From assembly GCA_019638595.1 (NCBI GenBank), contig JAHBTJ010000007.1, positions 229,674 to 293,673 of the forward strand: a stretch of DNA of 64,000 bases. Direction: 5' to 3'. Source of the stretch: Chitinophagaceae bacterium (lineage in GTDB: Bacteria > Bacteroidota > Bacteroidia > Chitinophagales > Chitinophagaceae). A program made the translations under genes and the position numbers. The notes under the pieces are model-generated. The model was given only the letters and a program-made list of their open reading frames with translations. It was not told where the DNA came from and ran no database searches. Shown piece by piece: positions 5,555 to 46,900 of the stretch (position 1 is the first letter of the stretch; the number at the start of each line of letters is the position of its first letter).

Positions 5555-5599
5555 AATTTATACCATTAAACATATTTAATTCAATGCGGCAATTAAAAC

Positions 5600-11144: not shown

Positions 11145-11156
11145 TTAGCCGGTAAA

Positions 11157-12955: not shown

Positions 12956-13104
12956 TATTTTTTAGGAAATTAGGAATAGTTGTTGCAACAACGTAAATTT
13001 ATTTTTTAAAGCATTTCAGGTAATTGTACGATGGTAATTTTACAAGGATAACTGTAAAATTTATACAAAAGAACGTACGATGAACTACTATAGAAAAAAT
13101 AAGG

Positions 13105-13779
13105 ATGAAAATTCAGGAACCAGGCTCTTTTGTAAAAGTAATTGTTGCTGATGACCACGTTTTGTTCAGGGCCGGCGTAAAAACCGCCCTCAGCATGAAA
13201 AAAGATGTGCGGTTGATTGGCGAAGCAGATAATGGTCAGCAATTGTTGCATTTGCTTAAGCATTTGCAACCCGATGTTATTTTACTGGATATCCAGATGC
13301 CGATCATGGACGGCATTACTACATTGCCTGAAATCAAAAAGCTTTATCCCGATATCAGGATCATTATGCTTACCATGCACAACGACCATTCCATGATCTC
13401 AAAACTGATGGAGCTGGGGGCCAATGCCTATCTTACCAAAAATTCAGATTCAGAGGTGATTTATGAAGCCATCAAAACCTGCTATCTTAACGAATATTAT
13501 TTTAACGACCTCACTAATAAAGCGCTGCTGGACGGACTGCGAACCAAACGCCATAATGATTCGTTTGGACCTGCCGAAGTAAAATTAAGCGAAAAGGAAA
13601 AACATATTCTTAAGCTGATGTGCGATGAAAAAAGCACTAAGGAAATTGCGGATATGGTAGATTTAAGCCCCCGCACGGTAGAAGCTATCCGCGATAAGCT
13701 CAAATCTAAAACCGGTGTTAAGTCAATGGCCGGGTTGGTTATGTACGCGGTTAAGTCAGGTATCATTGATAATAAGTAA
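13105..13779 (+). CDS. NarL/LuxR-family response regulator
   Basis: ADDH, LLDIQMP, AYLTK, LSPRTVEAIR. Confidence 0.95.
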   Translation: MKIQEPGSFVKVIVADDHVLFRAGVKTALSMKKDVRLIGEADNGQQLLHLLKHLQPDVILLDIQMPIMDGITTLPEIKKLYPDIRIIMLTMHNDHSMISKLMELGANAYLTKNSDSEVIYEAIKTCYLNEYYFNDLTNKALLDGLRTKRHNDSFGPAEVKLSEKEKHILKLMCDEKSTKEIADMVDLSPRTVEAIRDKLKSKTGVKSMAGLVMYAVKSGIIDNK

Positions 13780-13819
13780 TTTTACTTTTTATCAATACCT
13801 CTATTTAATCTTGCAGTAT

Positions 13820-14662
13820 ATGCCTGGTGGTTACTTTGTACATAATGGTCAACTCTTCAGGGAAGGTAAGGCGGTCATATCTCCCGATAATCGTTCTTTC
13901 AGGTACGGAGATGGCTTGTTTGAAACCATGCGCGTGGTAAAAGGGAATATTATTCTTAAGCAATTTCACTTTGAACGGTTATTGCATGGAATGAAGCTGC
14001 TGCAGTTTGAAACCCCTGATTTTTTTACCGCATCTCACCTTGAAGCCGATATTCTTTCCCTTTGTAAAAAAAACAGGATAGAAGATGCTGTAATAAGACT
14101 TGTGGTTTTTAGAAGCGATGGTGGGTTGTACGACCTGGAAGACATGCGCCCCAATTATATTATCCAGAGCATAGCCGTTCAAAAAATGTCCCGCCTTAAG
14201 GAACAGGGAGGTATTGTTATAGGCGTATATGACGATGCTACAAAAGCCTGCAATTCCTTTTCCGAAATTAAATCGAACAACTTTTTGCCATATACAATGG
14301 CTGCAATGTATGCCCGGCGTAAAAAGCTCGACGATTGTATTATACTCAACCAATATGGGCGGGTGGCCGATGCCACCATTGCCAATGTTTTTATTGTGAA
14401 AAATAAAGAGATTTATACGCCTCCTTTAAGCGAAGGCTGTGTAGCGGGAGTATTGCGCAGGTTTTTGCTTCAAAAGCTGCCATTACATGGGTTTGGCATA
14501 CAGGAGAAGCCTGTAACCGTAGATGACCTTTCGGCGGCAGATGAAATTTTTCTCACCAACGCGGTGCGGGGTGTCAGGTTTGTAAAAAAGTTCAGGGATA
14601 AAAGCTATGCTTCGGAAATTTCGCACGAGGTAGCGCAGGTTTGGCTTGGTAAGCAGGCATAA
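13820..14662 (+). CDS. Class IV PLP aminotransferase (4-amino-4-deoxychorismate lyase / BCAT-like)
   Basis: NRSFRYGDGLFETMR, IKSNN, ATIANVF, GCVAGVLR, EIFLTNAVRG. Start moved to ATG 13820. Confidence 0.9.
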   Translation: MPGGYFVHNGQLFREGKAVISPDNRSFRYGDGLFETMRVVKGNIILKQFHFERLLHGMKLLQFETPDFFTASHLEADILSLCKKNRIEDAVIRLVVFRSDGGLYDLEDMRPNYIIQSIAVQKMSRLKEQGGIVIGVYDDATKACNSFSEIKSNNFLPYTMAAMYARRKKLDDCIILNQYGRVADATIANVFIVKNKEIYTPPLSEGCVAGVLRRFLLQKLPLHGFGIQEKPVTVDDLSAADEIFLTNAVRGVRFVKKFRDKSYASEISHEVAQVWLGKQA

Positions 14663-14719
14663 TTCCGATAAGATAATACCATAATGCCGGGGAATACGTT
14701 TATTATACAACCCTGGTGT

Positions 14720-15415
14720 ATGTTTATACGAAAGCTGATTATAATACTCCTGAAAACGCTGCTATTGCTGCTGATCCTGCTTGCATTATACGCGCTGGCT
14801 GTTTGGCTATTACCCTATATAGCTGTTAATAAAGAGGCAGGTAACCCTAATAGTGAAGATGTAAGCATTTATATTAAAACCAATGGTGTGCATACGGATA
14901 TCGTAGTTCCGGTGAAAAATAACAGGATGGACTGGACGCAGTTGATCAGGTATGAGCATACGGATGCGAAAGATTCTTCCCTGCAATATGTGGGTATAGG
15001 TTGGGGCGACAAGGGGTTTTACCTGCAAACACCCGAGTGGAAAGACCTGAAGTTCAGTGTAGCGTTTAAAGCTATGTTCCATTTGAGCAGCTCAGCTATA
15101 CACGCTACTTTTTATAATGAAATTGTAACCGGGGAAGATTGTAAGGAAATAAGGATCAGCAATGTTGAGTACGATAAGCTGGTACAGTATATAAAAGACA
15201 CTTTTCAAAAAGATGCCGGAGGCAACAGCATACATATACCCAGCACAGATGATGGCTATGGCGCTACAGACGCGTTTTACGAAGCCAATGGCAAATACGA
15301 TCTTTTTCACACCTGCAATACCTGGGCCAACAGCGCTTTAAAAGCCTGCAACCAGCGGGCCTGTTTATGGACTGCGCTTGACGGTGGAATATTTTACCAG
15401 TATAAAGACAGGTAA
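14720..15415 (+). CDS. TIGR02117/DUF2459-like conserved protein
   Basis: NGVHTDIVVP, GWGDKGFYL, TCNTWAN; N-terminal TM anchor. Confidence 0.8.
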   Translation: MFIRKLIIILLKTLLLLLILLALYALAVWLLPYIAVNKEAGNPNSEDVSIYIKTNGVHTDIVVPVKNNRMDWTQLIRYEHTDAKDSSLQYVGIGWGDKGFYLQTPEWKDLKFSVAFKAMFHLSSSAIHATFYNEIVTGEDCKEIRISNVEYDKLVQYIKDTFQKDAGGNSIHIPSTDDGYGATDAFYEANGKYDLFHTCNTWANSALKACNQRACLWTALDGGIFYQYKDR

Positions 15416-15500
15416 CTATACGTTTCATTGCTGAAACAGCATACCAGGGCTATTTTTATTGTAACTTTAAAGTATCCCGGTAAATATCAAAGAATGAAAT

Positions 15501-15725
15501 ATGGACAATTGGAAAATCATCATGAGCGCCAGCTCTGCTGCACCATTTGAAGTGTATTTAGCAAAAAGCTATCTGGAGTCTGAAGGAATAGCAACATTAT
15601 TACAAAATGATTTGGCAGCCCAGGTATATTCAGGTGCTGTTGATGAAGCAAAGTTATTGGTTAAAGAAAGTGATGTAGAGCAGGGAATAAAAATATTGAC
15701 AAAGGGAGGATATATAAAAGATTGA
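15501..15725 (+). CDS. DUF2007-like small protein
   Basis: LAKSYLESEGI...KLLVKESDVEQG pattern. Confidence 0.65.
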   Translation: MDNWKIIMSASSAAPFEVYLAKSYLESEGIATLLQNDLAAQVYSGAVDEAKLLVKESDVEQGIKILTKGGYIKD

Positions 15726-15803
15726 TCACGAGAATAATCTTATTCAAGGTTCGCGATACACAAACCTGCACTCTTAATGGAAAGCCGGATTTCGTTTCGC
15801 TTT

Positions 15804-16790
15804 TTAATAGCCTGTCAACAATTTATTTACCATCATCTCATCAAGCACCGCTCTCACCTTCCTCTCCCGCTCCTCATAGCTTCCCGATATCAGCACATAC
15901 TCAATCTTTCTTTCCTCCAGTTCATTCTTAAATATCTTCATCATTTCCTTTCTGCGATGTCCCTGGTCACGAAGCGGGTCAGCAATCCAGGGGGTATCTA
16001 TATCAAGTAAAAAATAGAGATCGTACCTGGTTTGCTTTTCCAGCTCGGTAATAACCGGCGGCACTTTGCGTAAGTATAATTGTGCGTAAATGGCGGTAGT
16101 AATCGCATCTGTATCGCAAAACAAAAACTTGTTTGCCTGTTGTAGCTTTTCCTGAATATATTGATGCTGCAGCCTGCCGATAGCAATGATTTCTTTTTCA
16201 CCAAAATCATTCGATTGTAAAATATCTCTCGCGGACTCGGGCACATATACCGTATTATAATGTTCAGCCATCTTCATTGCCAGGGTAGATTTGCCGGTAC
16301 TCTCGGGGCCGTAAAAGCAGATCTTTTTTACAAAATAGGGTTGTATATGTATGGGAATATACTGCCAGTTTGCCAATGGCTCATTTCGTATAGCCGTAGC
16401 CGATATGGGCACAGTTGACCGCTGCATGTCAAAAACAATATGTGCGGCACTCATGTTAAGGGCAAAAGGCTCCCCGTAGTTTTCAGAGCTGATCAATATA
16501 TCTACCGGTGGATATGCCTGTTCCATCTTTTTTGCCCAGGCTGCTGTCCGCTCCTGCAGGGGCAGGTGTTCATTATCAAAATCATCTTTAATAATGTATG
16601 GAACTATGGCGGAATTGTTTTTAAATTGTTCTTTTATCCACTTAAAACGCAGTTGCGGCTCAATGGGATCAGCATCGGTATAGCTCATCGAAACAATCAG
16701 CTCATCACATCGCGAGGCGGCAAATTCGATCAACGCGATATGACCCTTGTGCAAGGGCATAAACTTACCAATTACCAATCCTCTTTTCAT
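15804..16790 (-). CDS. nadR: NadR-type NMN adenylyltransferase / ribosylnicotinamide kinase
   Basis: GKFMPLHKGH (HxGH), ISATAIR, P-loop GPESTGKST, FCDTD; no HTH domain. Confidence 0.9.
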   Translation of the reverse strand: MKRGLVIGKFMPLHKGHIALIEFAASRCDELIVSMSYTDADPIEPQLRFKWIKEQFKNNSAIVPYIIKDDFDNEHLPLQERTAAWAKKMEQAYPPVDILISSENYGEPFALNMSAAHIVFDMQRSTVPISATAIRNEPLANWQYIPIHIQPYFVKKICFYGPESTGKSTLAMKMAEHYNTVYVPESARDILQSNDFGEKEIIAIGRLQHQYIQEKLQQANKFLFCDTDAITTAIYAQLYLRKVPPVITELEKQTRYDLYFLLDIDTPWIADPLRDQGHRRKEMMKIFKNELEERKIEYVLISGSYEERERKVRAVLDEMMVNKLLTGY

Positions 16791-17455
16791 GCAGGTTGTT
16801 TAGCGTATGATTTGTATTCCCGTATCCAGTGCCACAAGCCAAAAGCCGCAATACCGCAGAATACCAGGTACTCAAAGCTGTAAAACTTTATGCCTTTTAT
16901 ATAATACAGGAAAGTAGCCACTATATCTACAATGATCCATATTACCCAGCATTCTATTTTCTTTTGTATCATATAAAAAGTAGTGATGATGCTCATTACC
17001 ATAATAAAAGAATCAATATAAGGATAAGCGCTGGGTTCGCTGAATACGATCGGGAACCATTCATGCAGGCGGCTTGCAAAATTGCCGAGTAAAAAAGTGC
17101 CGGCAATAGTAGTGGCAACAACAAATATAATTTGCGATGGTTTCATGTAACTCACTTTCAGCTCCTGCTTCCTGTCGGCTTCTTCCGGCTTGGGATGGCT
17201 CCACCGCCACCAGCCCATAATATTGGTAACAAAAAAGAAAGCCTGTAAAAACATATCAGGATACAACTGTACCTGGTAGTATAGTATGAATGATAATACC
17301 ACATTTACAATACCTACCGGCCAGCTCCATATATGCGCTTTGGCAGAGAGCCATACCGCCACCAGTCCGCTCATCACACCAAAAAATTCAATATAGCTCA
17401 TGGAATAACCGAGCAGTCTGAAAAATTCGTTGTGTATGTTGAATAGTTCTTTCAA
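16787..17455 (-). CDS. pnuC: Nicotinamide riboside transporter PnuC
   Basis: WSWPVGIVN, GWWRW, PYIDSF, KKIECWVIWIIVD; stop overlaps nadR start. Confidence 0.92.
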   Translation of the reverse strand: MKELFNIHNEFFRLLGYSMSYIEFFGVMSGLVAVWLSAKAHIWSWPVGIVNVVLSFILYYQVQLYPDMFLQAFFFVTNIMGWWRWSHPKPEEADRKQELKVSYMKPSQIIFVVATTIAGTFLLGNFASRLHEWFPIVFSEPSAYPYIDSFIMVMSIITTFYMIQKKIECWVIWIIVDIVATFLYYIKGIKFYSFEYLVFCGIAAFGLWHWIREYKSYAKQPA

Positions 17456-17618
17456 GATAAAAGTGTTTTGATTTTATAGCCAGCAATAAAGCAAAGCAAT
17501 ATGCATTTAATTCAAATCGTCATGTGGGCGGGATCGCAGTGACGTGCAAGAGTGATTAGTCTCTGCAACCAGCCTAATAATAGTAATGCATATCCCCTGC
17601 ATTTTTGCTGCTTCCCCC

Positions 17619-18464
17619 TTAAATAAATACATTACGATCAATGGGAGATACAGGATTATTGCATTCATAAATATTCAAAAATTCATTTACGGCTTTTTTC
17701 CCGTCAGCTCCTATGTTAATAGAATAATCGTTTACATACAGATCAATATGCTGCCGCATTACGCTTTCTTCCATTTCCCGGGAATGTTGCTTTACATACT
17801 CAGGTAAAACCGGGTAATTTTTGAATGCATATTCAATACTTTGCTGTATTAGTTTGTCTATAGCAGGTTGTATAGCGGGCGATATATTTTTTTTAACGGC
17901 TATACCACCTAACGGTATCGGGTAACCGGTTTTCTTTTCCCAGAAATCGCCGAGGTCAATCAATCTGTGTAATCCTTTTTGCCGGTATGTAAACCTGTTT
18001 TCATGAATAATAACACCCAGTGTTTTTTGGCCGGCAGTGGTCAACAAAAAATTTTCTATTTCATGAAATATTTTGAAGACTTTATTTTTTGCCTCGGGAA
18101 ATGCAAGTGAAAACAGGAGATGCGCTGTGGTGTTCTCCCCGGGAATAGCGACAGTATGCTGATTAATGTCAAAATCCACGGAATGCATATCAATGGGGTT
18201 AGCTGAAATCAAAAGCGGGCCTACGCCTTTACCCAATGCACCACCGCTGTGCAACATTTTATAAAGAGGAAGCACCAGCGGCAATACGCCATAGCTTATT
18301 TTGCTGATATCCAGCCTGCCTTCAATAGCCCATTGGTTCAGGGTTTGCACATCTTCCAGCACTACATCAAACTCAAAATCGCCGGTATCTATTTTTTTAT
18401 TTACCAGCGCATCAAAAATAAAAGTATCGTTAGGGCATGGAGAAAATCCGAGTGTGAGCTTCAT
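17619..18464 (-). CDS. mqnD: 1,4-dihydroxy-6-naphthoate synthase (futalosine pathway)
   Basis: LGFSPCPNDTFIF, GALGKGVGPL, IIHENRFTY, PIPLGGI, HIDLYVN. Confidence 0.95.
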   Translation of the reverse strand: MKLTLGFSPCPNDTFIFDALVNKKIDTGDFEFDVVLEDVQTLNQWAIEGRLDISKISYGVLPLVLPLYKMLHSGGALGKGVGPLLISANPIDMHSVDFDINQHTVAIPGENTTAHLLFSLAFPEAKNKVFKIFHEIENFLLTTAGQKTLGVIIHENRFTYRQKGLHRLIDLGDFWEKKTGYPIPLGGIAVKKNISPAIQPAIDKLIQQSIEYAFKNYPVLPEYVKQHSREMEESVMRQHIDLYVNDYSINIGADGKKAVNEFLNIYECNNPVSPIDRNVFI

Positions 18465-18473
18465 TGTAGTTAT

Positions 18474-19133
18474 TTAATAACATAGTAATGGTCTTATAGC
18501 CAGGATCAATTCCTGGTTCAGGTTTTCAATGGCTTCTTTTATCAGCCATCTTGATTTATCGCGTTCTCCCACAAAATTGGAAACTGCTCTCAACTGAACA
18601 AAAGGAATATTTTCCTGCAAACATACATAATGAAATGCCGCTCCTTCCATAGACTCAACGATCACATTATATTTTTCCATGAGCTGATGTATTCTGCCTG
18701 CATTCGTAGTTATTTCGTTGATGCTGACACCCCGCACCTGTTTTAATTTTATTTTGTTCAGAATGGTAGCATTAGGATTTACAAGCCATTTATCAGCATA
18801 TGGAAAACTGTTTTCGGCGAGGCCCAGGTCAAAAACATCTTTGAATTCGCTTCCTTCTTCCACACCAAGATCACCAAAAATTTCTTCGTTTATAATATAT
18901 ACTGAACCCGGAGGATAAAAGGGATGAAAGCTACCGCCTATACCTGCCTGTATTACCAGGTCGGGCTTTGTTTTTGATAAATATTTTGTAAGCGAATATG
19001 TAGTATTTGTAAGACCTACACCGGTAATCAAAATATGCACGCTGCAATCTTTTCGCTGATATTTTTTTTCAGCGAGGTATTGCTTTGTGGTGACCACTTC
19101 CTGTGGCGTAGCGGCTACAATTAAAATATTCAT
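18474..19133 (-). CDS. mqnB: Futalosine hydrolase
   Basis: MNILIVAAT, ITGVG, QAGIGG, ESMEGAA, RAVSNFV (MTAN/PNP fold), adjacent to mqnD. Start moved to ATG 19133. Confidence 0.9.
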   Translation of the reverse strand: MNILIVAATPQEVVTTKQYLAEKKYQRKDCSVHILITGVGLTNTTYSLTKYLSKTKPDLVIQAGIGGSFHPFYPPGSVYIINEEIFGDLGVEEGSEFKDVFDLGLAENSFPYADKWLVNPNATILNKIKLKQVRGVSINEITTNAGRIHQLMEKYNVIVESMEGAAFHYVCLQENIPFVQLRAVSNFVGERDKSRWLIKEAIENLNQELILAIRPLLCY

Positions 19134-19305
19134 CAGGCAAATTTCAGCATTTCGTAGATCAAATGTTGCCATATCACACTTCATGGGGTGTGCAGGCACA
19201 TCATTGATCAATCAAGGTATAGATAAAAATAGAAAGAAGTTAATTAAAAGTATAATAATTTAAAATAAAACGATAATTATTAATTGTTTAATTTAAATAT
19301 CTTTT

Positions 19306-19313
19306 TATATTTG
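19306..19313 (+). promoter_or_regulatory. -7 promoter box
   Basis: TATATTTG with an upstream TTG at ~19284; supports start at 19335. Confidence 0.55.
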
Positions 19314-19334
19314 CTGCTACTAAAATCATGCAAA

Positions 19335-19883
19335 ATGAATAAGACCGGTGTTCAAAAGTTTATCCTCACTAAAATAATTTTATGGGGAGCAATTTATTTT
19401 TCTGTAGTGGCATTGATCTATCACATTCGCTGGTTTGTACCTTTCCTCGCTTCCGGAGTTTCTACTGTTGTTCCCGATGGACAAACGCCGTTGATCTGGT
19501 TCCTTGTTCAAGTTGGTAACAACATTATTTTTTTATTTGTTGGTTATTTATTGGTGAAGCTATTCGGCAAATTCAACCAGACAGGTTTTTTTGACAAGGA
19601 ATGTATTGTTGTGCTTGATAAAATAATTGTATCCTGTATTGTGCTTGCAATTTTAGGAGTAATAAAGCTGGGGTACAGCAACTACAACAATATTCAGATC
19701 AAAGAAGTAAGCGAAGCAGGCATTATTGGAAAGCTACATTTACTGGCCAGGTTTATCACAAATATTATAGTTGTTAAGGAACCACAGACAATGTATTTTT
19801 TGTTAGCTGCGATGCTCTGGACGGTAAAGCAGTTTGTAAACAAGGCGCTATTTGTAAAGGCTGAAAACGAAAAATTTATTTAG
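19335..19883 (+). CDS. DUF2975-like membrane protein
   Basis: Several TM helices, C-terminal KAENEKFI, directly followed by a YozG-type HTH gene. Confidence 0.75.
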   Translation: MNKTGVQKFILTKIILWGAIYFSVVALIYHIRWFVPFLASGVSTVVPDGQTPLIWFLVQVGNNIIFLFVGYLLVKLFGKFNQTGFFDKECIVVLDKIIVSCIVLAILGVIKLGYSNYNNIQIKEVSEAGIIGKLHLLARFITNIIVVKEPQTMYFLLAAMLWTVKQFVNKALFVKAENEKFI

Positions 19884-19884
19884 C

Positions 19885-20094
19885 ATGGCAATCATAGTCA
19901 ATTTAGACGTTATGATGGCAAAACGAAAAATGTCATTAAAAGAGCTTTCCCAGCGTGTTGGTTTAACCACGGTTAATTTATCAATCTTAAAAACAGGTAA
20001 AGCAAAAGGTGTCCGTTTTGATACGCTCGATGCAATTTGTAAATCACTCGATTGTCAGCCGGGAGATATTTTAGAATATAAGGAAATTGAATAA
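19885..20094 (+). CDS. Cro/C1 HTH regulator (YozG-like)
   Basis: MAIIVNLDVMMAKRKM...NLSILKTGKAKGVRFDTLDAICKSLDCQPGDIL. Confidence 0.93.
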   Translation: MAIIVNLDVMMAKRKMSLKELSQRVGLTTVNLSILKTGKAKGVRFDTLDAICKSLDCQPGDILEYKEIE

Positions 20095-20163
20095 AGATGA
20101 TATTGAAATCGCGTAATGTTTTGGCGTCAGTGTAATCTTTTCTACTATCAAACAAACAACCTC

Positions 20164-21069
20164 ATGACTTTAATAGAAACCCAAAACCTTGACTTTTCTT
20201 TTAATAAAGGAGAGGCTGTTTTAAAAGATATCAACCTTAATGTTAAGCAAGGTTCCATCTATGGTTTTCTTGGGCCAAACGGTTCTGGTAAAACAACAAC
20301 TATTAGACTACTCCTGGGGCTTTTGCCATGCAAAAAAGACAAAATAAAGCTATTCGGGCAAAATCTTCAAGCTGACAGGATTAGTATTTTTTCAAAAATC
20401 GGTTCGCTAATCGAACAGCCGTCATTGTATGAACATCTGTCTGGTTTTGACAATTTAGAAATTACAAGAAGAATTAGGAATGCAAGCAAAAGCCGTATTG
20501 ACAAAGTTCTTCAATTGGTTGACTTAAAACCAGTATCTCAAAGAAAAGTAAGAGAATACTCTTTGGGAATGAAGCAACGCTTAGGGCTCGCTATTGCATT
20601 GATTACGGAACCTGAATTAGTGATATTGGATGAACCAGTAAATGGACTGGACCCCAATGGAATCATAGAAATCAGAGAATTGCTATTAAAACTCAATAAA
20701 GAAAATGGCATTACAATTTTTTTGTCAAGCCATTTACTGTCTGAAATCGAAAAAATCGTAACTCATGTAGGCGTTTTAAGTAAAGGGGAAATGGTTTTTC
20801 AAGGCAGGTACAACGACCTTAAAGAGTTGCAGAACAATTCAGCAACTATTCACATTGAAACAAGTGACAATCAAAAATCCCTTGACATGCTCGCCAGAAA
20901 ATATCCTTCTACATTTTCAGAAAACTCTCATATAGGGCTCCGCTATCAAAACAAGGAGCAAATTGCTACTATATGCAGGATACTTGTTGAAAGCAGTATT
21001 GACGTATATAGGATGCAGGTAGTGGATAAAGATCTTGAAAATATTTTTTTAGAAATAACCAAAAACTAA
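20164..21069 (+). CDS. ABC transporter ATP-binding protein (BcrA/LanF-like)
   Basis: GPNGSGKTT, YSLGMKQRLG, LDEPVNGLDP, SSHLLSE. Confidence 0.93.
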   Translation: MTLIETQNLDFSFNKGEAVLKDINLNVKQGSIYGFLGPNGSGKTTTIRLLLGLLPCKKDKIKLFGQNLQADRISIFSKIGSLIEQPSLYEHLSGFDNLEITRRIRNASKSRIDKVLQLVDLKPVSQRKVREYSLGMKQRLGLAIALITEPELVILDEPVNGLDPNGIIEIRELLLKLNKENGITIFLSSHLLSEIEKIVTHVGVLSKGEMVFQGRYNDLKELQNNSATIHIETSDNQKSLDMLARKYPSTFSENSHIGLRYQNKEQIATICRILVESSIDVYRMQVVDKDLENIFLEITKN

Positions 21070-37529: not shown

Positions 37530-38417
37530 ATGAAACATGCTTATGTATTTCCCGGCCAGGGTTCACAATTTTCAGGAATGGGCAAAGAGCTATACGAGAG
37601 TAATGCAGCAGCAAAAGAATTGTTTGAACAGGCCAACAGCATAGCAGGATTTCGTATTTCCGATATTATGTTTACAGGCACGGATGAAGACCTGAAGCAA
37701 ACAAAAGTTACGCAGCCCGCCATATTTCTGCATTCTGTTATCTTATATAAAACATTGGGCGAAGTAAAACCGGATATGGTTGCCGGGCACTCTTTAGGTG
37801 AATTTTCCGCGCTGGTTGCCAATGGTGCTTTATCTTTTGAAGATGGCTTAAAGCTGGTAATAGTACGTGCCAATGCCATGCAGAAAGCATGTGAAATAAA
37901 TCCATCTTCCATGGCGGCGGTGCTGGCGTTGGATGATGCCAAAGTAGAAGAAGTATGTGCCGCTATTCAAAACGAAACCGGTGAGATTGTTGTGCCGGCT
38001 AATTATAATTGCCCCGGTCAGTTGGTAATAAGCGGCTCAACTAAAGGAATAGAGATTGCCATACAGCGTATGAAGGAAGCCGGTGCTAAAAGAGCATTGG
38101 CGCTGCCTGTTGGTGGTGCTTTTCATTCGCCGTTGATGGAGCCGGCCAAAGTGGAGCTGGCAGCCGCGGTTGAAGCAACAACATTCAACACACCTTCCTG
38201 CCCGGTATACCAGAATTTTACGGCATCTCCTGTAACCGATCCTGCCACCATCAAAAAAAATATTATTGACCAGTTAACCGGCGCCGTTAGATGGACGCAA
38301 AGCGTTCAGAAAATGATAGCAGACGGCGCTACAACTTTCACCGAGGTTGGCCCCGGTAAAGTATTGCAGGGATTGATCGTGAAGATTGATAAGAGTGTTG
38401 CAGTGGGAGGGGCATAA
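37530..38417 (+). CDS. fabD: Malonyl-CoA:ACP transacylase
   Basis: FPGQGSQ, TQPAI, GHSLGE, AFHS, EVGPGKVL; -7 box TATTTTTG at 37479-37486. Confidence 0.98.
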   Translation: MKHAYVFPGQGSQFSGMGKELYESNAAAKELFEQANSIAGFRISDIMFTGTDEDLKQTKVTQPAIFLHSVILYKTLGEVKPDMVAGHSLGEFSALVANGALSFEDGLKLVIVRANAMQKACEINPSSMAAVLALDDAKVEEVCAAIQNETGEIVVPANYNCPGQLVISGSTKGIEIAIQRMKEAGAKRALALPVGGAFHSPLMEPAKVELAAAVEATTFNTPSCPVYQNFTASPVTDPATIKKNIIDQLTGAVRWTQSVQKMIADGATTFTEVGPGKVLQGLIVKIDKSVAVGGA

Positions 38418-38569
38418 GTATTTTAGACTTTCGGGGAACAGGTATTTTATATGCAGCGATATTTTTGAATTGTATAGACGCAGGAAAGCAATGATGTTCC
38501 GGGCCGCATCGCTACTATGATCGTCTGGTTGTGTCACTTATCCCAATGAGCAGGTTCAACGTGACAGGC

Positions 38570-38699
38570 TTTCGCTGTACGAAGTTTCCAACTTCGTATT
38601 TCCTATGTTCTTACGGGACTTTGTCCCGGAATATTTGTTGCATGCTGAAGCCGCCGGACGGGAGAAAAATGCTAAGCGAAGACGCTTAGCACAGCAAAG
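38570..38699. repeat. ~130-bp multi-hairpin element, family B, copy 3 (direct repeat of 43351-43485)
   Basis: Hairpins TACGAAGTT/AACTTCGTA, CGGGAC/GTCCCG and TGCTAAGCG/CGCTTAGCA; near-identical to 43351-43485. Confidence 0.9.
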
Positions 38700-38744
38700 G
38701 TGGATGATGATGTACTAATTCCCATATTCTGACTGCGAAACTAA

Positions 38745-38804
38745 AAATACGTGAGGGTCTTTTCTAAAGGTACTTATCATGTGCATGGTACTTTCCCGCA
38801 CATT
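38745..38804 (-). pseudogene. Third toxin fragment (not in ORF track)
   Basis: Translates NVRESTMHMISTFRKDPHVF versus TVREGSMHMMSVFRKDPAVF in 41413-42366; the DNA is also clearly homologous. Confidence 0.8.
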
Positions 38805-38820
38805 GGCAAGATTATATAGG

Positions 38821-39960
38821 CTATAATTCATCATATTCATAAACATACAAAATGTCAGGAAATTCAGAAATAAAAAGTCGTTTACCTAAAACTTGCATCC
38901 TGCTAATTTCTAAATTCTCTGCATTACTTTTCCCTAACTTCTGCACCAAAACAATATTTCGATTGAAACGATCAAATAAAGCAATTTTTGAATCATGCCT
39001 GTTAAAAAGATAAATATATTTTTCATCGAAAGGAATATGAGGAAAAGACTGGACTATAAAAGCCTCTTCTGTCAAATTATCAATCTCACAAAAAATCAGC
39101 CTTGGCTCCTTTGAATTTAAGTCAATCTCGAAGTAATAATTCTTTGCAGTTTCGTTCAAACCAAAGTGCCCCAGATAAAATATCTTAAATCGTATCGGAT
39201 CAAATATTGCATCATGATTATAATAATAATTTCTATCTCTATCGTAATTGATTTCTGAAAAAATATCAGAAGTTGCATTTTCAGGCATTCCAATTTTATG
39301 CTCAATATCTCCTGTTTCTATATTTAATGCAATCACTAACCCATTATACAACAAAACCCAAACAAGCTCATCATTTACACCCAAGAACCTGTTGACTTGC
39401 CCGCTCGTAGTAATTCTATCCAGGTTCAACTTCCCTTTATAAAATTGCCCTACTTTGCTTACCGATTGAGTCCAGATAATAGAACCCGTATCAATATCTA
39501 TTCTTTCTACTTTATCATTATCGGCATTCTTTGAAAAACAATATTCTTCAATTAAAACAGGATTGATTATAGCCTCTGTGTCCCATAATTGCACCTGGGT
39601 CTTTATGTCATACAAATATTCCTTAGACTTATCAAAATCTTTATCCAAATAAACTCTTCCAAATAGTTTATCTCTTACGGGAGTCAAATGATAAAGCCTT
39701 CTTTTTTCAAAATCTTCATCTTTAATAACCTCGAAAGTATCTCTATTAATTCTTACCCCTTTACTTGAGAAGAACACTATTACATATTTGTTATAAAGTC
39801 TTACAATGCTTATTATGTCGAATAACCTAAGTACTTGTTCTTTTCCTGATGAAATGTTTGCTTTTATTAAATCAAATTTTCTCGCATAAAAAATATATTC
39901 GCCATCTGTAACCCACTTCTCTGGAAGTACAGAATTAATTGTTCTAAGTTTTATATACAT
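38821..39960 (-). CDS. Putative immunity protein 2 (PQQ-like beta-propeller)
   Basis: Paralog of 40290-41411 (LPEKWV, KVERIDI.TG.IIWTQS.SK.G, RFLGV, Y.E.DLNS..P); ATG 1 nt after the toxin-fragment stop. Confidence 0.7.
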   Translation of the reverse strand: MYIKLRTINSVLPEKWVTDGEYIFYARKFDLIKANISSGKEQVLRLFDIISIVRLYNKYVIVFFSSKGVRINRDTFEVIKDEDFEKRRLYHLTPVRDKLFGRVYLDKDFDKSKEYLYDIKTQVQLWDTEAIINPVLIEEYCFSKNADNDKVERIDIDTGSIIWTQSVSKVGQFYKGKLNLDRITTSGQVNRFLGVNDELVWVLLYNGLVIALNIETGDIEHKIGMPENATSDIFSEINYDRDRNYYYNHDAIFDPIRFKIFYLGHFGLNETAKNYYFEIDLNSKEPRLIFCEIDNLTEEAFIVQSFPHIPFDEKYIYLFNRHDSKIALFDRFNRNIVLVQKLGKSNAENLEISRMQVLGKRLFISEFPDILYVYEYDEL

Positions 39961-39961
39961 G

Positions 39962-40270
39962 TCACCAAATTTCTATAAACGAAAGTTGTTTGAAAAAATT
40001 TTCATTTTTTAATGCCCTTATAAAGTCATCTACACCTTGAACACTCCTGCCGTTTATCAGTTTGAAATGGTGCATAAGCGCTGGATTTGCATTATAGATT
40101 TCCGTAGCATTATTAGCCATAAATTTCTGAAACTCTTTCCTCAACAAGTCAACATCATGCGTCTTTAACTTATTAAAAATATATTTAAAATCATCCCAAT
40201 TCTGCACTGAGCCAATGTACGTTTTGAACTGGTTTAGCTGCTTGTTTAAGTTGCGGGACTGCCTTATTAC
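39962..40270 (-). pseudogene. Orphan toxin C-terminal tip fragment
   Basis: QLNQFKTY...HDVDLLRKEFQKFMANNATEIYNANP is nearly the same as the C-terminus of 41413-42366; it begins after the ExK motif, so no catalytic core. Confidence 0.8.
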
Positions 40271-40289
40271 ATTTTCAATTACTCTAACA

Positions 40290-41411
40290 CTAATTGCTTC
40301 TTTCAAAAACGTGTAGTTTTTTGGAATAATCCAGCACGAACCAATTTGTATTTACCACTTCCATTTTTGTAATGATAGCTCCTTTCTCCGTGTCCAACTT
40401 ATGTACCCACTCTATCTCCTTCGTTTTGCGGTTGAACAATCCAATTTTGCTTTCCTGGAAATCACACGTATAAATATAATCCTCATCAAATGGAAAGACC
40501 GGAGAAGCGCCGCCTTGTACAACAAAGCCTTCTTCACCTATAGTTAATACCGGCTCTATTGTCAATGCCGGCTTTTCGCTATTCAAATCAACTTCACAGT
40601 AACAGTTTGCAGGATTACCGCCATGCGTAGAAGAATATGCAGTTAAAAGAATGATTTTCCCATTATGCTTATCGAAAAGACAATTCTTTGTAATAAATGT
40701 ATTATTCTTTTCTGCATTTTCTATTACAATAAACATATCCTCATTATACTTTGGGCAACCTCTCAATTCATGTTTCAGATTTCCATTCATGACATCATAA
40801 CCCAGCAGCACACCGTTGGTTAACTCAACCCATAAAACATCTTTGTAAACACCTAAAAACCTTCTTACCTCACCTTCGCGGGTTGCTTTTCCAAAAGGTA
40901 TATAATAGCTTCCTATTTTAGATATTGATTGTGTCCAGATAATAGCACCTGTTTCTATATCTATTCTTTCTACTTTATCAGTATTACTAGAAAAACAGTA
41001 GTCATCTAAAATAATAGGGTTAATAGGGAGTTTTGAAAGCCAAACCTGTTTAGAATCCTTTATATTATACAGAAATGTACCTCTATAGTCATCATCTACA
41101 TATTTACGACCAAGCAGCATATCTCGCACAGGGGAAACCTGTTGAAATCTCATACTCTCGAAATCATCATCTTCAATTTTTGAAAAAGTATTTCGATCAA
41201 TACGTGATCCTGTGCTTGAATAAAAAGCAATAACTTCTTCCCCATAATTTCTAACCACAATTATTTTGCTCTGAAGTTGGAGCGTTTTTTTTTCTCCAGA
41301 TTCTATTTTAAGTTTAACTAAATCTGAATCATCTGCGTAGTAAATATGGCTGTGGTCCACAACCCATTTTTCAGGTAGCGCAGGTTTTATTTCTAATATC
41401 TTATTATACAT
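40290..41411 (-). CDS. Putative immunity protein 1 (PQQ-like beta-propeller)
   Basis: 373 aa from ATG 41411, 1 nt after the toxin stop; WTQSIS and GYDVMNG propeller-like blades; AT-rich. Confidence 0.72.
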   Translation of the reverse strand: MYNKILEIKPALPEKWVVDHSHIYYADDSDLVKLKIESGEKKTLQLQSKIIVVRNYGEEVIAFYSSTGSRIDRNTFSKIEDDDFESMRFQQVSPVRDMLLGRKYVDDDYRGTFLYNIKDSKQVWLSKLPINPIILDDYCFSSNTDKVERIDIETGAIIWTQSISKIGSYYIPFGKATREGEVRRFLGVYKDVLWVELTNGVLLGYDVMNGNLKHELRGCPKYNEDMFIVIENAEKNNTFITKNCLFDKHNGKIILLTAYSSTHGGNPANCYCEVDLNSEKPALTIEPVLTIGEEGFVVQGGASPVFPFDEDYIYTCDFQESKIGLFNRKTKEIEWVHKLDTEKGAIITKMEVVNTNWFVLDYSKKLHVFERSN

Positions 41412-41412
41412 A

Positions 41413-42366
41413 TTACCATGTTTCAATAAAAGTGAGCTGCTCATAAAAATTTGGTGTTTTTACTAACCTCTCAAAGTCGTCAATAATATCAACGTTTAAT
41501 CCGTCAGGCATTATGAACTTTTTCATAAGTAACGGGTTTGCATTGTAAATTTCAGTAGCATTCTTAGCCATAAATTTCTGAAACTCTTTCCTCAACAAGT
41601 CAACATCATGCTTCTTTAACTTATTAAACACATATCTAAACTCATCCCAATTATTAACCGAGCTAAGATACATTTTAAACTGGTTTAGCTGATTATCCAG
41701 GTTTACAATACTTTTGTACTGGTAACTTTTGAACTCGTAATACTTCGGTTTGGTTGCTTCCATCATCTCCACGTCAAACTTGCAGGTAGTACATGGTGTC
41801 TCATCAAACACAGCGTCAATTCTATTTATATTTTGTGCGCTAAATACAGCAGGGTCTTTTCTAAAAACACTCATCATATGCATGCTACCTTCACGCACAG
41901 TTGAAAGGGGATGAGTTAATCCCGATTTAATTGTAGCGATAATATCAGGCTTGCTCGCAAACTGCTGCCCAATTGCAAATAGATCATCCAGCATCATATC
42001 CATTCGCCTGGCACCATATAAGGGAAGTCCTTGAAGGTCTTGCTTAACTGCATTGCGGCAGGTGGCACAAGGCATATCATTAGCTGCCTGAATAATATTT
42101 TCCAGTTCCGTAACACCACCTATATTATTTAACGTAGAGGCATTTGCCGGCTTTAAAAACCGGGCTACGGCATTTATAACCTCCGGGTCCTTTGCAAACT
42201 GGGTACTTTCATTAATGGCACTTCTTATTAAAGCAGCGGCCTGGTCTTTTAACGCTTGAGGGATCGGAACAAACCGAACACCTCCTAGTTTATCCAAGGC
42301 TTTGTTTGCATCCCTGGCAAGATCTGAGTTTCCGGCAACTTCAGCTTCTGTTTTTATCCGTTCCAC
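41413..42366 (-). CDS. N-terminally truncated polymorphic toxin C-terminus, putative PD-(D/E)xK nuclease
   Basis: FDVEMMEATKPKYYEFKS (D...ExK), downstream QLNQF..Y, two CxxC (CATC, CTTC); in-frame stop just upstream of the GTG; no delivery domain. Confidence 0.65.
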   Translation of the reverse strand: MERIKTEAEVAGNSDLARDANKALDKLGGVRFVPIPQALKDQAAALIRSAINESTQFAKDPEVINAVARFLKPANASTLNNIGGVTELENIIQAANDMPCATCRNAVKQDLQGLPLYGARRMDMMLDDLFAIGQQFASKPDIIATIKSGLTHPLSTVREGSMHMMSVFRKDPAVFSAQNINRIDAVFDETPCTTCKFDVEMMEATKPKYYEFKSYQYKSIVNLDNQLNQFKMYLSSVNNWDEFRYVFNKLKKHDVDLLRKEFQKFMAKNATEIYNANPLLMKKFIMPDGLNVDIIDDFERLVKTPNFYEQLTFIETW

Positions 42367-42643
42367 AATCCTTGGCTCGACAGGTTAGGCTTTACTTCCG
42401 AACGCAGGGTAACAGTCACTACCATGAACAAATTACTCATTATCCGGCTGGATGAACAGTAAAGCAAAAAGCCGTCAGTTCAATTCGGGTTGGCGGCTTT
42501 ATTTGCAATGCCTGTCAAACCTCAGATTTACTTATCTATACCCTACAAGCGATACTTCCATTTACCAGACAGGCAAAATTATTGTAAATTCGTTGAGTGA
42601 ACCACGAAGTGCTCACGAACACAAGTGCAATAATATAAATGCC

Positions 42644-43174
42644 GTGAGTAAAAAGCGAAAGGAAACAGGACTTGATTTTGAAATAGACAAGCTGACTAAC
42701 TCCATTGAAAATGCAATTTCGGGAGAGGTTTTTGATACATTGGTTTCCCTGGTAACAGACATCAGGCAAATTAAAAAAGCTGAATGGACTTTTAATTGGC
42801 AGGCAGAAATTAAAGACAAGGCAAAAGCTGTTTTCAAGCTAACAACAATAAGTAATCCAGGTGTTATTCATGGGCTTATTGGCTTGACAGATAAAGGAGA
42901 CCACATCTTCATGGACTTGATCGAAAATGCCAAATTCAATAAAGGGAGGAACAAACTTTATAAAGGCGTGGCCGGCAACCCTGTTGCTTTTGCTTGTAAG
43001 ACCTCTTTTGAAAATGGCTATGAAGGTGTTGTGTCTTTTGTCGCTAAAACTCAACTCATTGACCATTACGCATTGACTTTAGGCGCAAAACTATTTAGCG
43101 GTAACAGAATGTTTATAGATACAAAAGAAGCACTCATTTTGACAACAAGATATTTTAAAGAATTCAGGCTATGA
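42644..43174 (+). CDS. GNAT-like hypothetical protein (putative toxin)
   Basis: From GTG 42644 (AT-rich leader): ...IFMDLIENAKFN...YKGVAGN..AFAC..SF..GYEGVVSFVAKT.LIDHY; YKGVA resembles an acetyl-CoA binding loop. Confidence 0.6.
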   Translation: MSKKRKETGLDFEIDKLTNSIENAISGEVFDTLVSLVTDIRQIKKAEWTFNWQAEIKDKAKAVFKLTTISNPGVIHGLIGLTDKGDHIFMDLIENAKFNKGRNKLYKGVAGNPVAFACKTSFENGYEGVVSFVAKTQLIDHYALTLGAKLFSGNRMFIDTKEALILTTRYFKEFRL

Positions 43175-43332
43175 TAAACTTCAAAAAAATGGACGAAAAA
43201 GACTTTGTTTTCATCAGCAAACCTTTGAGTGATAAACAAGACAAAGCATTTAGTGAATTTTTGGAAAGTCGCAAGAAAAAATCCCGGCGAACAAAAACCG
43301 CAAGAAAAACGAAGAAACTTCAAACTCAATAA
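43171..43332 (+). CDS. 53-aa basic protein (putative antitoxin), not in ORF track
   Basis: MINFKKMDEKDFVFISKPLSDKQDKAFSEFLESRKKKSRRTKTARKTKKLQTQ; ATGA overlap with the upstream gene. Confidence 0.7.
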   Translation: MINFKKMDEKDFVFISKPLSDKQDKAFSEFLESRKKKSRRTKTARKTKKLQTQ

Positions 43333-43350
43333 GCACGAACCGCCAACAAT

Positions 43351-43485
43351 TTTCGCTGTACGAAGTTTCCAACTTCGTATTTCCTATGTTCTTACGGGAC
43401 TTTTTCCCGGAATATTTGTTGCATGCTGAAGTCGCCGGAGGCGACAGGAGAAAAATGCTAAGCGAAGACGCTTAGCACAGCAAAG
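43351..43485. repeat. ~135-bp multi-hairpin element, family B, copy 4
   Basis: Direct repeat of 38570-38699 with an intact GTCGCC-GGA-GGCGAC hairpin. Confidence 0.9.
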
Positions 43486-43486
43486 A

Positions 43487-43780
43487 GTGTAGGTGTTGGG
43501 CATAGATTAATGTTTAAATAAATGTACAGAATTTTTATAAGGGTAGCCTCTACGAGGCATGTAAAAATGGCTGTTATCTTTTTTATACAAACGGGTTGCC
43601 GCTATGCGGCATGTTTCAGGATGCCAATATCCCTACTCACATGAACGCAAATATCAGTTTGCTGCATCTCAGCCAGGCGAAACATCGTTGAATCTATTGC
43701 ATTTCCTGTGCCATCGGCACAACCCGTTTGTAGAAAATATTGACATATTTTCACAAATGCCCCGTATGGGGCTACCCTGT
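43487..43780 (-). mobile_element. tnpA 5' stub (MPNTYT) plus four-hairpin REPIN-like unit, family A
   Basis: Homologous to 50902-51196; GGGT(A/T)G-hairpin units at 43541 and 43583 (+), 43708 and 43759 (-). Confidence 0.85.
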
Positions 43781-43926
43781 GTAAAAATTAATGTAATTAA
43801 GCCGAAAATATCGGCAATCCCATAAGCGTTGTTACATTGCGATATATGCATTCAATCAGTATTTTCAGAATTAATGTATTCTTGTTATGCAATTTGCCCG
43901 GCTTCTGCATCCAGCCCTTATAACGC

Positions 43927-46900
43927 ATGCATATGAGAAAATCCCTGCTTTTTTCCCTGTTCCTTTTATTGTTACACATCCACGTTTCCGGCCAGCAGTA
44001 TATTAAAGAAGCCCGTCAAAAAAGCTGGCAATCACTGGTATATAAAATCCCTGCAGACTCAGCAGATAAATACATCCGCAATTGGAAGATCAACATTGAT
44101 GCATATATTCAACAAGCAGTTTTCGCGGTTTGGAATAATGCTATAGAACATTTTGAATTATTGCCGCCCGGTAATTATATAATTGTTGCTGTTGCTGAAA
44201 ATGAGCTGGTAGCAAAATTTTATTGCAAAAGCAATGTCGGGGTAATGCCTGTAAATGACAGGCACAGGCTGCGGTTTGAAATAAGGGACAGTATCGGGAA
44301 TGCGGTTAAGCAGGCTGATATTTGGCTGAACAATAAAAAGCTGCATCATGATCCCGCAACTCAAACTTATATTTCAAATAGCAGGAAAGCAGACGAAGCT
44401 ATTATTAAAGTTGCTGCTGATGGCGATACTTCTTTTTTTGAATTAGCTGCACTTGAAAATTATACAAAAACGTACTGGAATCAACGGTGGACAAACCTCT
44501 ACTATAAAAAACCTGTATATTTTGCCAGTACGCCTGTAAGATTTGTAAAAAGAATGATTACAACGGAGCCTGCCTATTGGTTCCGGAGCACGAGATATTA
44601 CAGGAAAGCAGAACGTGGGTATGTGATCTTCAATCAACCCAAATATAAGCCGGGAGATACGCTTCGCTTGAAAGCATATGTTATAAACAGAAAAGGCAGG
44701 CAATATAAAAAACCGCTTCATCTTCAGCTCAATTATTACAGCAATGGTAAATATTTCAGCAGGCAACTCACCACTTTATCGCCGGTTTCTCCCGGGGCTT
44801 ATGTATATGAGTTTGTTTTAGGAGATTCCTTAGATGCAGACAAAACATATCAGCTTAATTTCCAAAAGAAAAAAGACGAGACAGTTTTAAGTGGAAATTT
44901 TAAGATAGAAGACTATTTGCTGGATGAAGTAGCTACATATTCGCTGCGTTCTGAAAAAGAAAGCTACTACCAAAAAGACACTTTGTTATTTTACGCCAAT
45001 GCCAAAGATGCAAACGGCCTGGCGCTGATGGACGGGAAAGCCAGGATCTATCTTATTGCAAAAAATATCCCCGGGTTTTATCAGCAGCAGGTATTGGTAC
45101 CCGACACTTTATGGCAGCAGGAAAAACCATTGCTTGTAGAAGGCGATACCCGGTTTGAAATTCCTGCATCCTCGTTGCCTGACGCTGACCTGGATATTGA
45201 TGTAACGGTAGAATTCAGGAACAGCAATAATGAAATCCAGGAAAAAGAAGCTTCCATTAAATTATTAAAGAATACCGCTCTAATTAAAGCTGTACAGGAA
45301 GATGGTTATATAACCGCTGAATACCTGAAGAACGGGATATCTATTCCAAAGAAAGGAAAACTATCGTACGGAGATGATGATATGGAAAGGGAAATGCAAT
45401 TTCCTTTCAAAGAAAAAATCAATCCTTTTACAGAAGAATATGAGTTTTGGATAGAAGATGAGGAAGGCAAAGTAACAGTTTTCGAATATACAGCGATTGA
45501 AAAAACAGCCGATGTAATCTTTAGCCGGGTACAGTCAAAAGACAGTTCAGGATTTTCTTTGTACAATCCTTTAAAAGCGAATGTGCATTACAACGTGCTA
45601 TATGGTAATAAAGTAATGACTGCCGGCAGTGATACCGCTGAAAATATTGCATGGATTGACAGGCTGGATAAAAAGAAAATATATTCGGTTGTATGGAATT
45701 ACACCTGGGCCGGTAAAGAGCATAAAGGAGAAAATACCATAGCGTTGCTTTCTAAGCTGCTTGGCACTACCATAAGCGGCGCTGCAAATATTTACCCCGG
45801 GAAAACCGATACGATAAAAATAAATGTGAAGGATTATAAAGGGAAACCCGCATCATCAGTGAATCTTACGGCGGTAAGCTATAACAGCCAGTTCAGTAAA
45901 GATATTAAAGTGCCTGAACCGCCTTACCTGCAACGCTATAAACGTAGAAGCAGGTTATATATGGATGATTATGGATTAGAGAAAGCCGGATTTACTTCAC
46001 AGCAACTGTTGGGCAACCACCAGCAATGGAGAAGCGTATTCGGACTGGATAGCATGTTGTATTATCGCTTTCTTTTCCCGGATAAAGGAAAATATACTTC
46101 TTCAAAATATACCGGCAATTATATACCACAATTATCTGTTTTTGCCGTACAAAAAGGGGTGCCACAGGAAATTTACCTGCTATATATTAACAGGGAACTT
46201 GTGTGGTATAATGGCGTAACTGATTCATCAAGCTATGCTTTCAAAGTTGCGCCCGGTTACGTGCAGGTAGGTTTTAGATTGAAAGATAAGTATGTGGAAA
46301 TTGATAGTATATATGTACAACCCTATTATAAGCATGATATGGTTTTTGACCTGGACATGCTGCCCGCAAATACAAAAGTAATTTCCAGGGAAAATATGTA
46401 TACCTATGTGGAACAGCGGCAACTTGAGCAGCAATTATTCAGGATATCAAATGATGGTAGAACAAACGACGGATATATCTGGCAGAATGATCGCCTGGTT
46501 AAACTAACTCAATCCAGGTCACATATTGTAGGGCCATTTCAGTCCACAGACAGTTTGCAGTTTTTTAAACCCGGCGCCTTTGATCTGAAGTTTGCATTTG
46601 AGCCGGAATATGAATATACGCTCACTCCTGCAATGGCACGACTGGAAAAGAAACCGCTATTCCCTCAAAAACACCGTGTAAAGTTACCCGGTATAAAAAT
46701 AACAAAATGGGTATTAGGCGACACCATTCCTTCTCTGCCGGTTATTCAATACAATACTGTGTATACCCCTCCATATTTATTAGCTAACGATTATTACTAC
46801 ACGAAAAGCATGATGACAGGGGCGGTTTCTGTTCAATTACCTCCTGACAGCAGTTTTATATATGCCATATTGTATAGCATTGATGCGGATAGTAATATTA

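Follow-up and report, generated by a model that had tools for sequence, protein, structure and literature searches.

Here, we analyze a compact cluster of toxin remnants and immunity genes in a Chitinophagaceae bacterium (Bacteroidota; assembly GCA_019638595.1, contig JAHBTJ010000007.1). The cluster occupies positions 38821-42366 on the minus strand of a 64-kb stretch of this 310-kb contig, which we refer to as the window and to which coordinates refer unless another locus is named. It consists of four open reading frames (ORFs) that alternate between toxin pieces (ORFs A and C) and immunity genes (ORFs B and D) and that are followed by a short third toxin remnant (Table 1). Both toxin-immunity junctions have the same form: a single nucleotide separates the stop codon of ORF A (TAA, 41415-41413) from the ATG of ORF B (41411), and likewise the stop codon of ORF C (TGA, 39964-39962) from the ATG of ORF D (39960). 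The two immunity proteins are paralogues with 40% identity over their whole length (E value 7e-93). An initial annotation of this region had listed the ORFs, the two stop + 1 nt + ATG junctions, a 48-bp block shared by the toxin pieces, and the divergence of the immunity paralogues, and we find all of these features at the positions it gave.

Table 1. Features of the toxin-immunity array and of the segment that contains it (window coordinates; aa, amino acids)
Feature	Position	Strand	Description
ORF A	42366..41413	-	5'-truncated, domain-complete BaCT nuclease domain; 317 aa, GTG start
ORF B	41411..40290	-	Immunity 1, BaCTic-type; 373 aa from the ATG behind the stop of ORF A; predicted PQQ/BamB-like beta-propeller
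ORF C	40306..39962	-	Orphan BaCT tip; 114 aa
ORF D	39960..38821	-	Immunity 2, paralogue of ORF B; 379 aa
Third BaCT remnant	38745..38810	-	~22 codons; within ORF 38846..38715
48-bp block, copy in ORF C	40113..40160		Encodes HDVDLLRKEFQKFMA, corresponding to helix 255-268 of the ORF A model
48-bp block, partner copy	41564..41611		Inside ORF A
Terminator-like palindromic hairpin	38669..38692	-	Closes the array; located within the left-hand repeat copy
Direct repeat, left copy	38570..38699	+	~130 bp
Direct repeat, right copy	43351..43485	+	~96% identical to the left copy, one 5-nt indel
240-aa ORF	42452..43174	+	Between the repeats, divergent from the array
53-aa ORF	43171..43332	+	Very basic; overlaps the 240-aa ORF

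ORF A is the most informative of the toxin pieces. It lacks a delivery region: its reading frame is closed by a stop 5 codons upstream of the GTG, the likeness to full-length parent proteins begins right there, and the rest of the window matches no portion of 10 full-length parents, so that toxin N-terminal parts are absent from these 64 kb. What remains is a toxin 3' fragment that lacks a delivery region and has its own immunity gene behind it, which is an orphan C-terminus (CT)/immunity module in the sense used for contact-dependent growth inhibition (CDI) and Rhs systems. The earlier proposal of an orphan polymorphic-toxin array is thus borne out by the in-frame stop before ORF A and by the lack of an N-terminal toxin part in the window.

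The sequence and predicted structure of ORF A support a nuclease core. Its distinctive residues are C100xxC103, C192xxC195, E159/H163, D198, E211-F-K213, Q229, Y233, Y245, and K251; across an alignment of 21 sequences, C100, C103, D198, E211, K213, S214, Q229, Y233, Y245, and K251 are invariant. An AlphaFold2 model (predicted local distance difference test [pLDDT] score, 88.2; predicted template modeling score, 0.81) places a helix at residues 155-170, strands at 180-184, 198-203, and 206-213, a helix at 223-235, and a strand at 243-247. This order, alpha-beta-beta-beta-alpha-beta, is that of the restriction endonuclease (REase) core, and in the model D198 opens strand 198-203 while E211 and K213 sit in strand 206-213. 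The REase-fold core suggested earlier is therefore in keeping with an invariant ExK motif and with the model topology. Taken together, the motif, the predicted topology, and the published biochemistry of the family described below support a PD-(D/E)xK (REase-type) core in ORF A. We also observed that base composition is mosaic inside this single ORF: guanine-plus-cytosine (GC) content is host-like (0.44-0.47) in its 5' third (41900-42400) and 0.26-0.40 in its 3' part and in both immunity genes.

A toxin-immunity family with these properties has been described and experimentally tested by Jana, Salomon, and Bosis in 2020 (PMC7073777). Among the polymorphic toxins of Bacteroidetes, the TANFOR proteins form one class; the commonest of the previously undefined C-terminal domains in this class, BaCT, is a PD-(D/E)xK DNase (PMC7073777). 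BaCT is a C-terminal domain of ~300 aa with an invariant (D/E)xK in TANFOR/Fn3 proteins; more broadly, its hosts are large TANFOR, Fn3, PT-HINT, or DUF4157 proteins, almost only from Bacteroidetes, and those listed in the published table bear signal peptides (PMC7073777). E. coli is poisoned by the last 302 residues of WP_081912444.1, whose BaCT domain degrades DNA in a Mg-dependent manner, and the substitutions E1724A and K1726A abolish activity (PMC7073777). The immunity protein, BaCTic (WP_035620349.1, 358 aa), is encoded 2 nt downstream of BaCT, binds the domain in a pull-down, and rescues the cell (PMC7073777). BaCTic proteins were defined by a gene position no more than 50 bp downstream of BaCT and in the same orientation, and their main sequence cluster holds 57 of the 65 BaCT-downstream proteins (PMC7073777). 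In the published table, these proteins are mostly 302-390 aa long, most rows place them at -4 to +11 nt, and three are annotated PQQ_2 or PQQ_DH_like; the tables also include BaCT proteins of 135-140 aa, and the words "orphan," "propeller," and "PQQ" do not occur in the main text (PMC7073777).

ORF A belongs to BaCT by sequence comparison. The initial annotation had taken the toxin for a member of an uncharacterized family, a view that does not hold: the toxin is a BaCT domain, the proteins encoded behind it fit BaCTic, and BaCT and BaCTic were both tested in 2020 (PMC7073777). That the family looks unknown follows from the lack of any Pfam or NCBIfam model for it, and searches of Pfam, NCBIfam, PADLOC, and PHROGs with the toxin indeed returned nothing meaningful. 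A word-index protein search with ORF A found ORF A itself as its sole match, and with a 21-sequence toxin profile it recovered 2 proteins among 8000 candidates; such searches are almost blind to the BaCT family. An exhaustive HMMER search of 1.84 billion representative proteins, on the other hand, yielded 135 homologues of ORF A, 38 of them at an E value of 1e-10 or lower and 7 at 1e-30 or lower. Among the matches listed, the homology always lies at the extreme C-terminus of the homologue, and the long homologues are proteins of 1200-3100 aa with Fn3 near residue 300 or with LRR, Ig, or laminin-G domains. A search for full-length parents, as had been recommended, thus leads to TANFOR/Fn3-type proteins of this size. 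In the closest of them, P0005 (1905 aa), residues 1585-1904 are 47% identical to residues 1-315 of ORF A; the protein is named "TANFOR domain-containing protein" by its source, and its N-terminal TANFOR match (TIGR02542; E value, 1.4e-9; 38 bits) is below the 67-bit curated cut-off. P0005 also carries an HExxH motif (HEIAHGLFKLRH) mid-protein, between its Fn3 and toxin domains, in a region where no Pfam domain is called; this stretch may be a putative processing metallopeptidase.

The connection to the published family runs through a Capnocytophaga locus. A genome scan with the single pattern [ATH][MVI]REG[TS][QM]H.. led to 7 related loci, and genome loci with BaCT homologues were found in Capnocytophaga, Marinilabiliaceae, Cyclobacteriaceae, and Ohtaekwangia. 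At locus L003 (NZ_KE992173.1, Capnocytophaga sp. oral taxon 863), the ORF at 4960-6018 matches ORF A with an E value of 2.7e-39, and WP_081695762.1, row 97 of the BaCT table in PMC7073777, makes up the 3' part of this Capnocytophaga ORF (5599-6018). ORF A aligns with the WP_081695762.1 piece at an E value of 6e-12 across C192, C195, D198, E211-F-K213-S-Y, and Q-F..Y-L. A protein 84% identical to the L003 BaCT ORF (P0009) scores 1.9e-33 with ORF A in the library of 1.8 billion proteins.

Two of the related loci have features of their own. L003 (104-6018) holds a truncated toxin with another C-terminus, then paralogous genes of ~225 aa (two complete and one interrupted by a run of N), and then the 352-aa orphan BaCT ORF, of which only the last 139 aa are annotated in RefSeq; the L003 BaCT is an orphan module behind another toxin's immunity array. 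At L002 (3-1346), a BaCT homologue upstream of the propeller P0004 carries an in-frame stop (858-860) between its IDIVDE and ELK motifs, and the immunity gene behind it is intact. The stop reflects either a pseudogene or a sequencing error.

Pairing with a downstream gene is consistent across the family. Six of the related loci (L002, L004, L005, L006, L008, and L009) have DNA beyond the toxin, and in all six the next gene is a homologue of ORF B (phmmer E values, 2e-19 to 3e-9) that starts at -4 to +2 nt from the toxin stop. Because of this pairing, and because they share a weak PQQ_2 signal with these homologues and have a size within the range in the table of PMC7073777, ORFs B and D fit BaCTic. 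Neither protein has a signal-peptide-like N-terminus, and a word-index search with ORF B gave two weak matches only.

The immunity proteins, BaCTic included, are probably large PQQ/BamB-like propellers. PQQ_2 is matched, below the Pfam threshold, by 5 of 9 members of the immunity family (best E value, 8.6e-6), and a profile of these nine proteins finds BamB in the Protein Data Bank (PDB) at ~2e-5 over ~75 residues. A low-confidence structural model of the immunity protein retrieves by Foldseek the 8-bladed PQQ-like propellers tetrathionate hydrolase, BamB, and YxaL at ~1e-9, with template modeling scores of ~0.4. The ~375-aa PQQ-like propeller assigned to these proteins earlier is in line with the PQQ_2, BamB, and Foldseek signals, which are weak or come from a poor model.

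Toxin tails and immunity proteins also vary in step. Over 8 pairs, which are not independent, the more alike two toxin tails are, the more alike are the immunity proteins (Spearman, 0.71-0.80), as expected of cognate pairs. The tip and the core behind the ExK motif do not separate as trackers of the immunity protein (0.71 versus 0.80, with the same non-independent pairs). One pair of loci is instructive in this respect: L005 and L008 are 83% identical in the core behind the ExK motif, only 32% in the tip, and 53% in the immunity protein, a contrast that suggests tip swapping in nature.

ORF C corresponds to such a tip. Its residues 19-114 (about 39962-40252) align without gaps to residues 222-317 of ORF A at 67% identity (E value, 1e-46), and the homology ends abruptly upstream of residue 222 of ORF A. 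ORF C thus starts 8 codons past the ExK motif and contains no catalytic residue of the first three strands; as it is without D198, E211, and K213, it is not a nuclease on its own. Within the aligned region, the 48-bp block (40113-40160 and 41564-41611) is exactly identical, and the match ends at both edges. Its 16 codons contain zero synonymous changes, compared with about one-third of the codons for conserved amino acids that differ synonymously in the rest of the alignment (hand count), and we take this identity to be more than chance. In successive 30-nt bins, nucleotide identity between ORFs A and C is 80, 73, 87, 97, 93, and 77%, followed by 47-71% in the last ~40 codons. The third remnant lies directly after the stop of ORF D, is 79% identical in nucleotides to 41842-41907 of ORF A, and reads VRESTMHMISTFRKDPHVF; it corresponds to residues ~155-175 of ORF A (the REG..H helix in the middle of the domain) and is cut after ~22 codons.

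The genomic setting of the array bears on how it came to be there. Downstream of fabD, a low-GC segment of ~5.5 kb contains the array; GC content falls to 0.26-0.40 across 38700-41900, compared with about 0.42-0.52 in the DNA on either side. This fabD, immediately upstream of the segment, shares at least 90% identity with its counterparts in Agriterribacter and Chitinophagaceae metagenome-assembled genomes (MAGs). In one related metagenome contig (L010), a gap of 69 nt (10889-10956) separates fabD from the next gene, which is orthologous to the 1928-aa A2M-like gene of the window, so that positions 38418-43926 of the window are extra in comparison. In a closer relative, an Agriterribacter MAG (L011), synteny stops at the same point, and Wadjet JetABCD and other genes follow (10889-20888). 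The fabD-downstream site is therefore a swap site for conflict systems in this Chitinophagaceae lineage. The acquired character attributed to the array finds agreement in its low GC content and in a segment that is absent from L010 and replaced in L011, and the locus looks horizontally acquired.

Copies of a ~130-bp direct repeat bracket 4.65 kb (38700-43350) comprising the array and the 240-aa and 53-aa ORFs, and the repeat occurs only these two times in the window. It contains three hairpins, TACGAAGTT-TCC-AACTTCGTA, CGGGAC-TTTG-GTCCCG, and GCTAAGCG-AAGA-CGCTTAGC. The ORFs of the array together with the 240-aa and 53-aa ORFs fill nearly all of the inter-repeat stretch, leaving no room for a further recombinase-sized ORF. 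Searches of Pfam, NCBIfam, PADLOC, PHROGs, and PDB sequences gave no match for the 240-aa ORF, and its exact sequence is absent from a collection of 15 billion proteins. A metagenome scan with the third hairpin found nothing, and one with the first hairpin returned two chance matches and one related element of 48 bp. The latter (L014, 1692-1739) matches the start of the flanking repeat at 94% identity and occupies, on an unrelated metagenome contig, the intergenic space between two convergent genes, one for a 236-aa protein and one for a polyprenyl synthetase. It hints at a small intergenic repeat that is lineage-wide. Because this relative stands in an unrelated context, the flanking repeat may be a dispersed intergenic element rather than an attachment (att) site, and we consider that it may represent either an att-like scar or such an element. 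No Rfam families are found in 38300-44000, and the window contains no tRNA genes.

Based on these observations, we regard the locus as very probably an array of orphan BaCT/BaCTic modules. BaCT is the C-terminal DNase of giant secreted TANFOR/Fn3 toxins and BaCTic the cytoplasmic immunity protein that neutralizes it by binding. The array preserves three successive remnants of toxin 3' ends, namely, a complete nuclease domain (ORF A), a 96-residue post-catalytic tip (ORF C), and a 22-codon scrap, the first two of which are still coupled to intact immunity genes of ~375 aa and of the predicted propeller type. The cell would be unable to deliver the ORF A product, having no secretion or delivery part for it, and ORFs B and D would be retained as protection against BaCT variants delivered by neighboring cells. 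The toxin fragments may be footprints of serial displacement or acquisition of modules through the conserved stretch with the 48-bp block, and they could also act as recombination substrates. If recombination swaps "tip + immunity" units, one would expect just such an arrangement, with a near-identical stretch ahead of a diverged tip and a diverged immunity gene. That intact immunity ORFs stand beside truncated toxins, in low-GC DNA at a variable insertion site, makes it plausible that the array is kept as an acquired immunity bank.

Several observations weigh against parts of this interpretation. The whole ORF A model has no Foldseek match in the PDB at an E value of 0.001 or lower (best, 0.03), and the REase-fold proteins Kpn2I, XisH, Card1, Cap4, and MspJI surface only at E values of 0.9-2; PDB sequence searches with the toxin likewise gave no match. 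ORF A is linked to the tested pair WP_081912444.1/WP_035620349.1 through the authors' BaCT list and shared architecture, not by direct alignment. On the immunity side, ORFs B and D match PQQ_2 at ~21 bits (ORF B, 21.3), under the 27.6-bit cut-off, and the propeller model, built from a 4-sequence alignment, is poor (pLDDT, 54.5). Finally, no RNA runs were found with the array sequence, and a single metagenome DNA run holds one-third of the sampled words.

We weighed four other explanations against an array of orphan BaCT/BaCTic modules. One of them is compatible with it: the array could serve as a recombination reservoir, from which a full-length TANFOR-BaCT gene elsewhere swaps tip and immunity gene via the conserved block. 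The 48-bp identical block within a stretch of 87-97% identity, followed by a diverged tip, would fit such exchange, as would L005 and L008 with their shared core and dissimilar tips. However, the window contains no full-length toxin or toxin N-terminal segment, and the two genes that have the block in common are both orphans; we therefore hold this role to be possible but doubtful. Somewhat less probable still is that the array is a decaying relic, an eroding remnant of a complete toxin locus or a passenger on a mobile cassette with no current function. The toxin pieces do shorten stepwise (from 317 aa to 96 homologous residues to 22 codons), ORF A starts at a GTG soon after an in-frame stop, and no promoter evidence was found at the array, but against such erosion stand two immunity ORFs (373 and 379 aa) that, at 60% divergence from each other, are both intact and as long as the family norm, and also the preserved translational-coupling junctions.

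Two explanations remain. ORF A could be the toxin of an addiction pair, a cytoplasmic protein neutralized by ORF B that stabilizes the island in the manner of toxin-antitoxin systems; ORF A, tightly coupled to ORF B, spans the complete BaCT domain and so corresponds to the 302-aa piece with toxicity in E. coli. We consider this improbable: the listed homologues match at their C-terminal ends, the long ones being large multidomain proteins, ORF A bears the scar of a 5' truncation, and ORFs C and D and the third scrap would go unexplained. An anti-phage system, in which an REase-like nuclease is joined to a propeller sensor, is suggested by the defense-island context, as the same fabD-downstream site holds Wadjet in a relative. 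It is nonetheless the reading to which we attach hardly any weight, given that PADLOC and PHROGs return no matches, that the nuclease shares homology with the C-terminal ends of TANFOR/Fn3-type polymorphic toxins, and that an architecture of truncated fragments is typical of orphan toxin modules.

A more speculative idea concerns specificity. We tentatively propose, while thinking it rather unlikely to be correct, that BaCT immunity specificity resides in the last ~45-95 residues past the ExK motif. If this were true, a toxin could gain a new specificity from cassettes of tip and propeller such as ORFs C and D, through recombination within the nuclease domain at the conserved helix encoded by the 48-bp block, and BaCTic would stand as an established case of a large 8-bladed PQQ-like propeller acting as a nuclease immunity protein.

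The locus leaves the current understanding of polymorphic toxins unchanged. It illustrates that a published and validated toxin-immunity family is still "unknown" to domain libraries and that such loci are annotated as hypothetical, that BaCT modules are found in orphan arrays whose truncations are nested, one break being inside the nuclease domain, and that a single site downstream of fabD can be empty in one relative, hold Wadjet in another, and hold a BaCT array here. Large propellers are also unusual as immunity proteins.

The array can be compared with several known systems. The acquired interbacterial defense (AID) and recombinase-associated (rAID) clusters of Bacteroidales, reported by Ross et al. 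in 2019, are said to carry immunity genes to type VI secretion system (T6SS) effectors, with rAID reportedly tied to a tyrosine recombinase. The array resembles them in that its immunity genes are orphans within an island that is mobile or variable and presumably protect against the toxins of neighbors, but it differs from rAID in that no recombinase is recognized, the 240-aa ORF between the repeats having no family match in Pfam or NCBIfam.

Another likeness is found in orphan cdiA-CT/cdiI and rhs-CT/rhsI modules (described in general terms in PMC3482391), which are tandem 5'-truncated toxin 3' ends, each with an immunity gene; they share with the array short conserved recombination stretches and a low-GC, acquired character. 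Unlike those modules, which belong to systems delivered by the type V secretion system or the T6SS, the array relates to TANFOR proteins and to another toxin fold family. Moreover, the break in ORF C lies inside the nuclease domain past the ExK motif instead of at a pretoxin boundary motif, and no parent gene adjoins the array. For the immunity proteins, a parallel is PefE of the Proteus mirabilis T6SS pef operon, a large predicted propeller whose variable regions set specificity (PMC5714391). Compared by description, ORFs B and D are likewise large immunity proteins predicted to form bladed propellers, although the effector and the secretion system are different.

The strongest likeness is to BaCT/BaCTic itself: a domain of ~300 aa from Bacteroidota TANFOR/Fn3 giants, with an invariant ExK in an alpha-beta-beta-beta-alpha-beta context, and, in the same orientation and a few nucleotides further downstream, an immunity gene of ~300-390 aa, with some of the encoded proteins annotated as PQQ-like. 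The array departs from that description in consisting of orphan modules without the TANFOR/Fn3 delivery part, one of which is only a post-catalytic tip. The locus is thus a further example of the known BaCT system, notable mainly for antidotes that appear to be large propellers.

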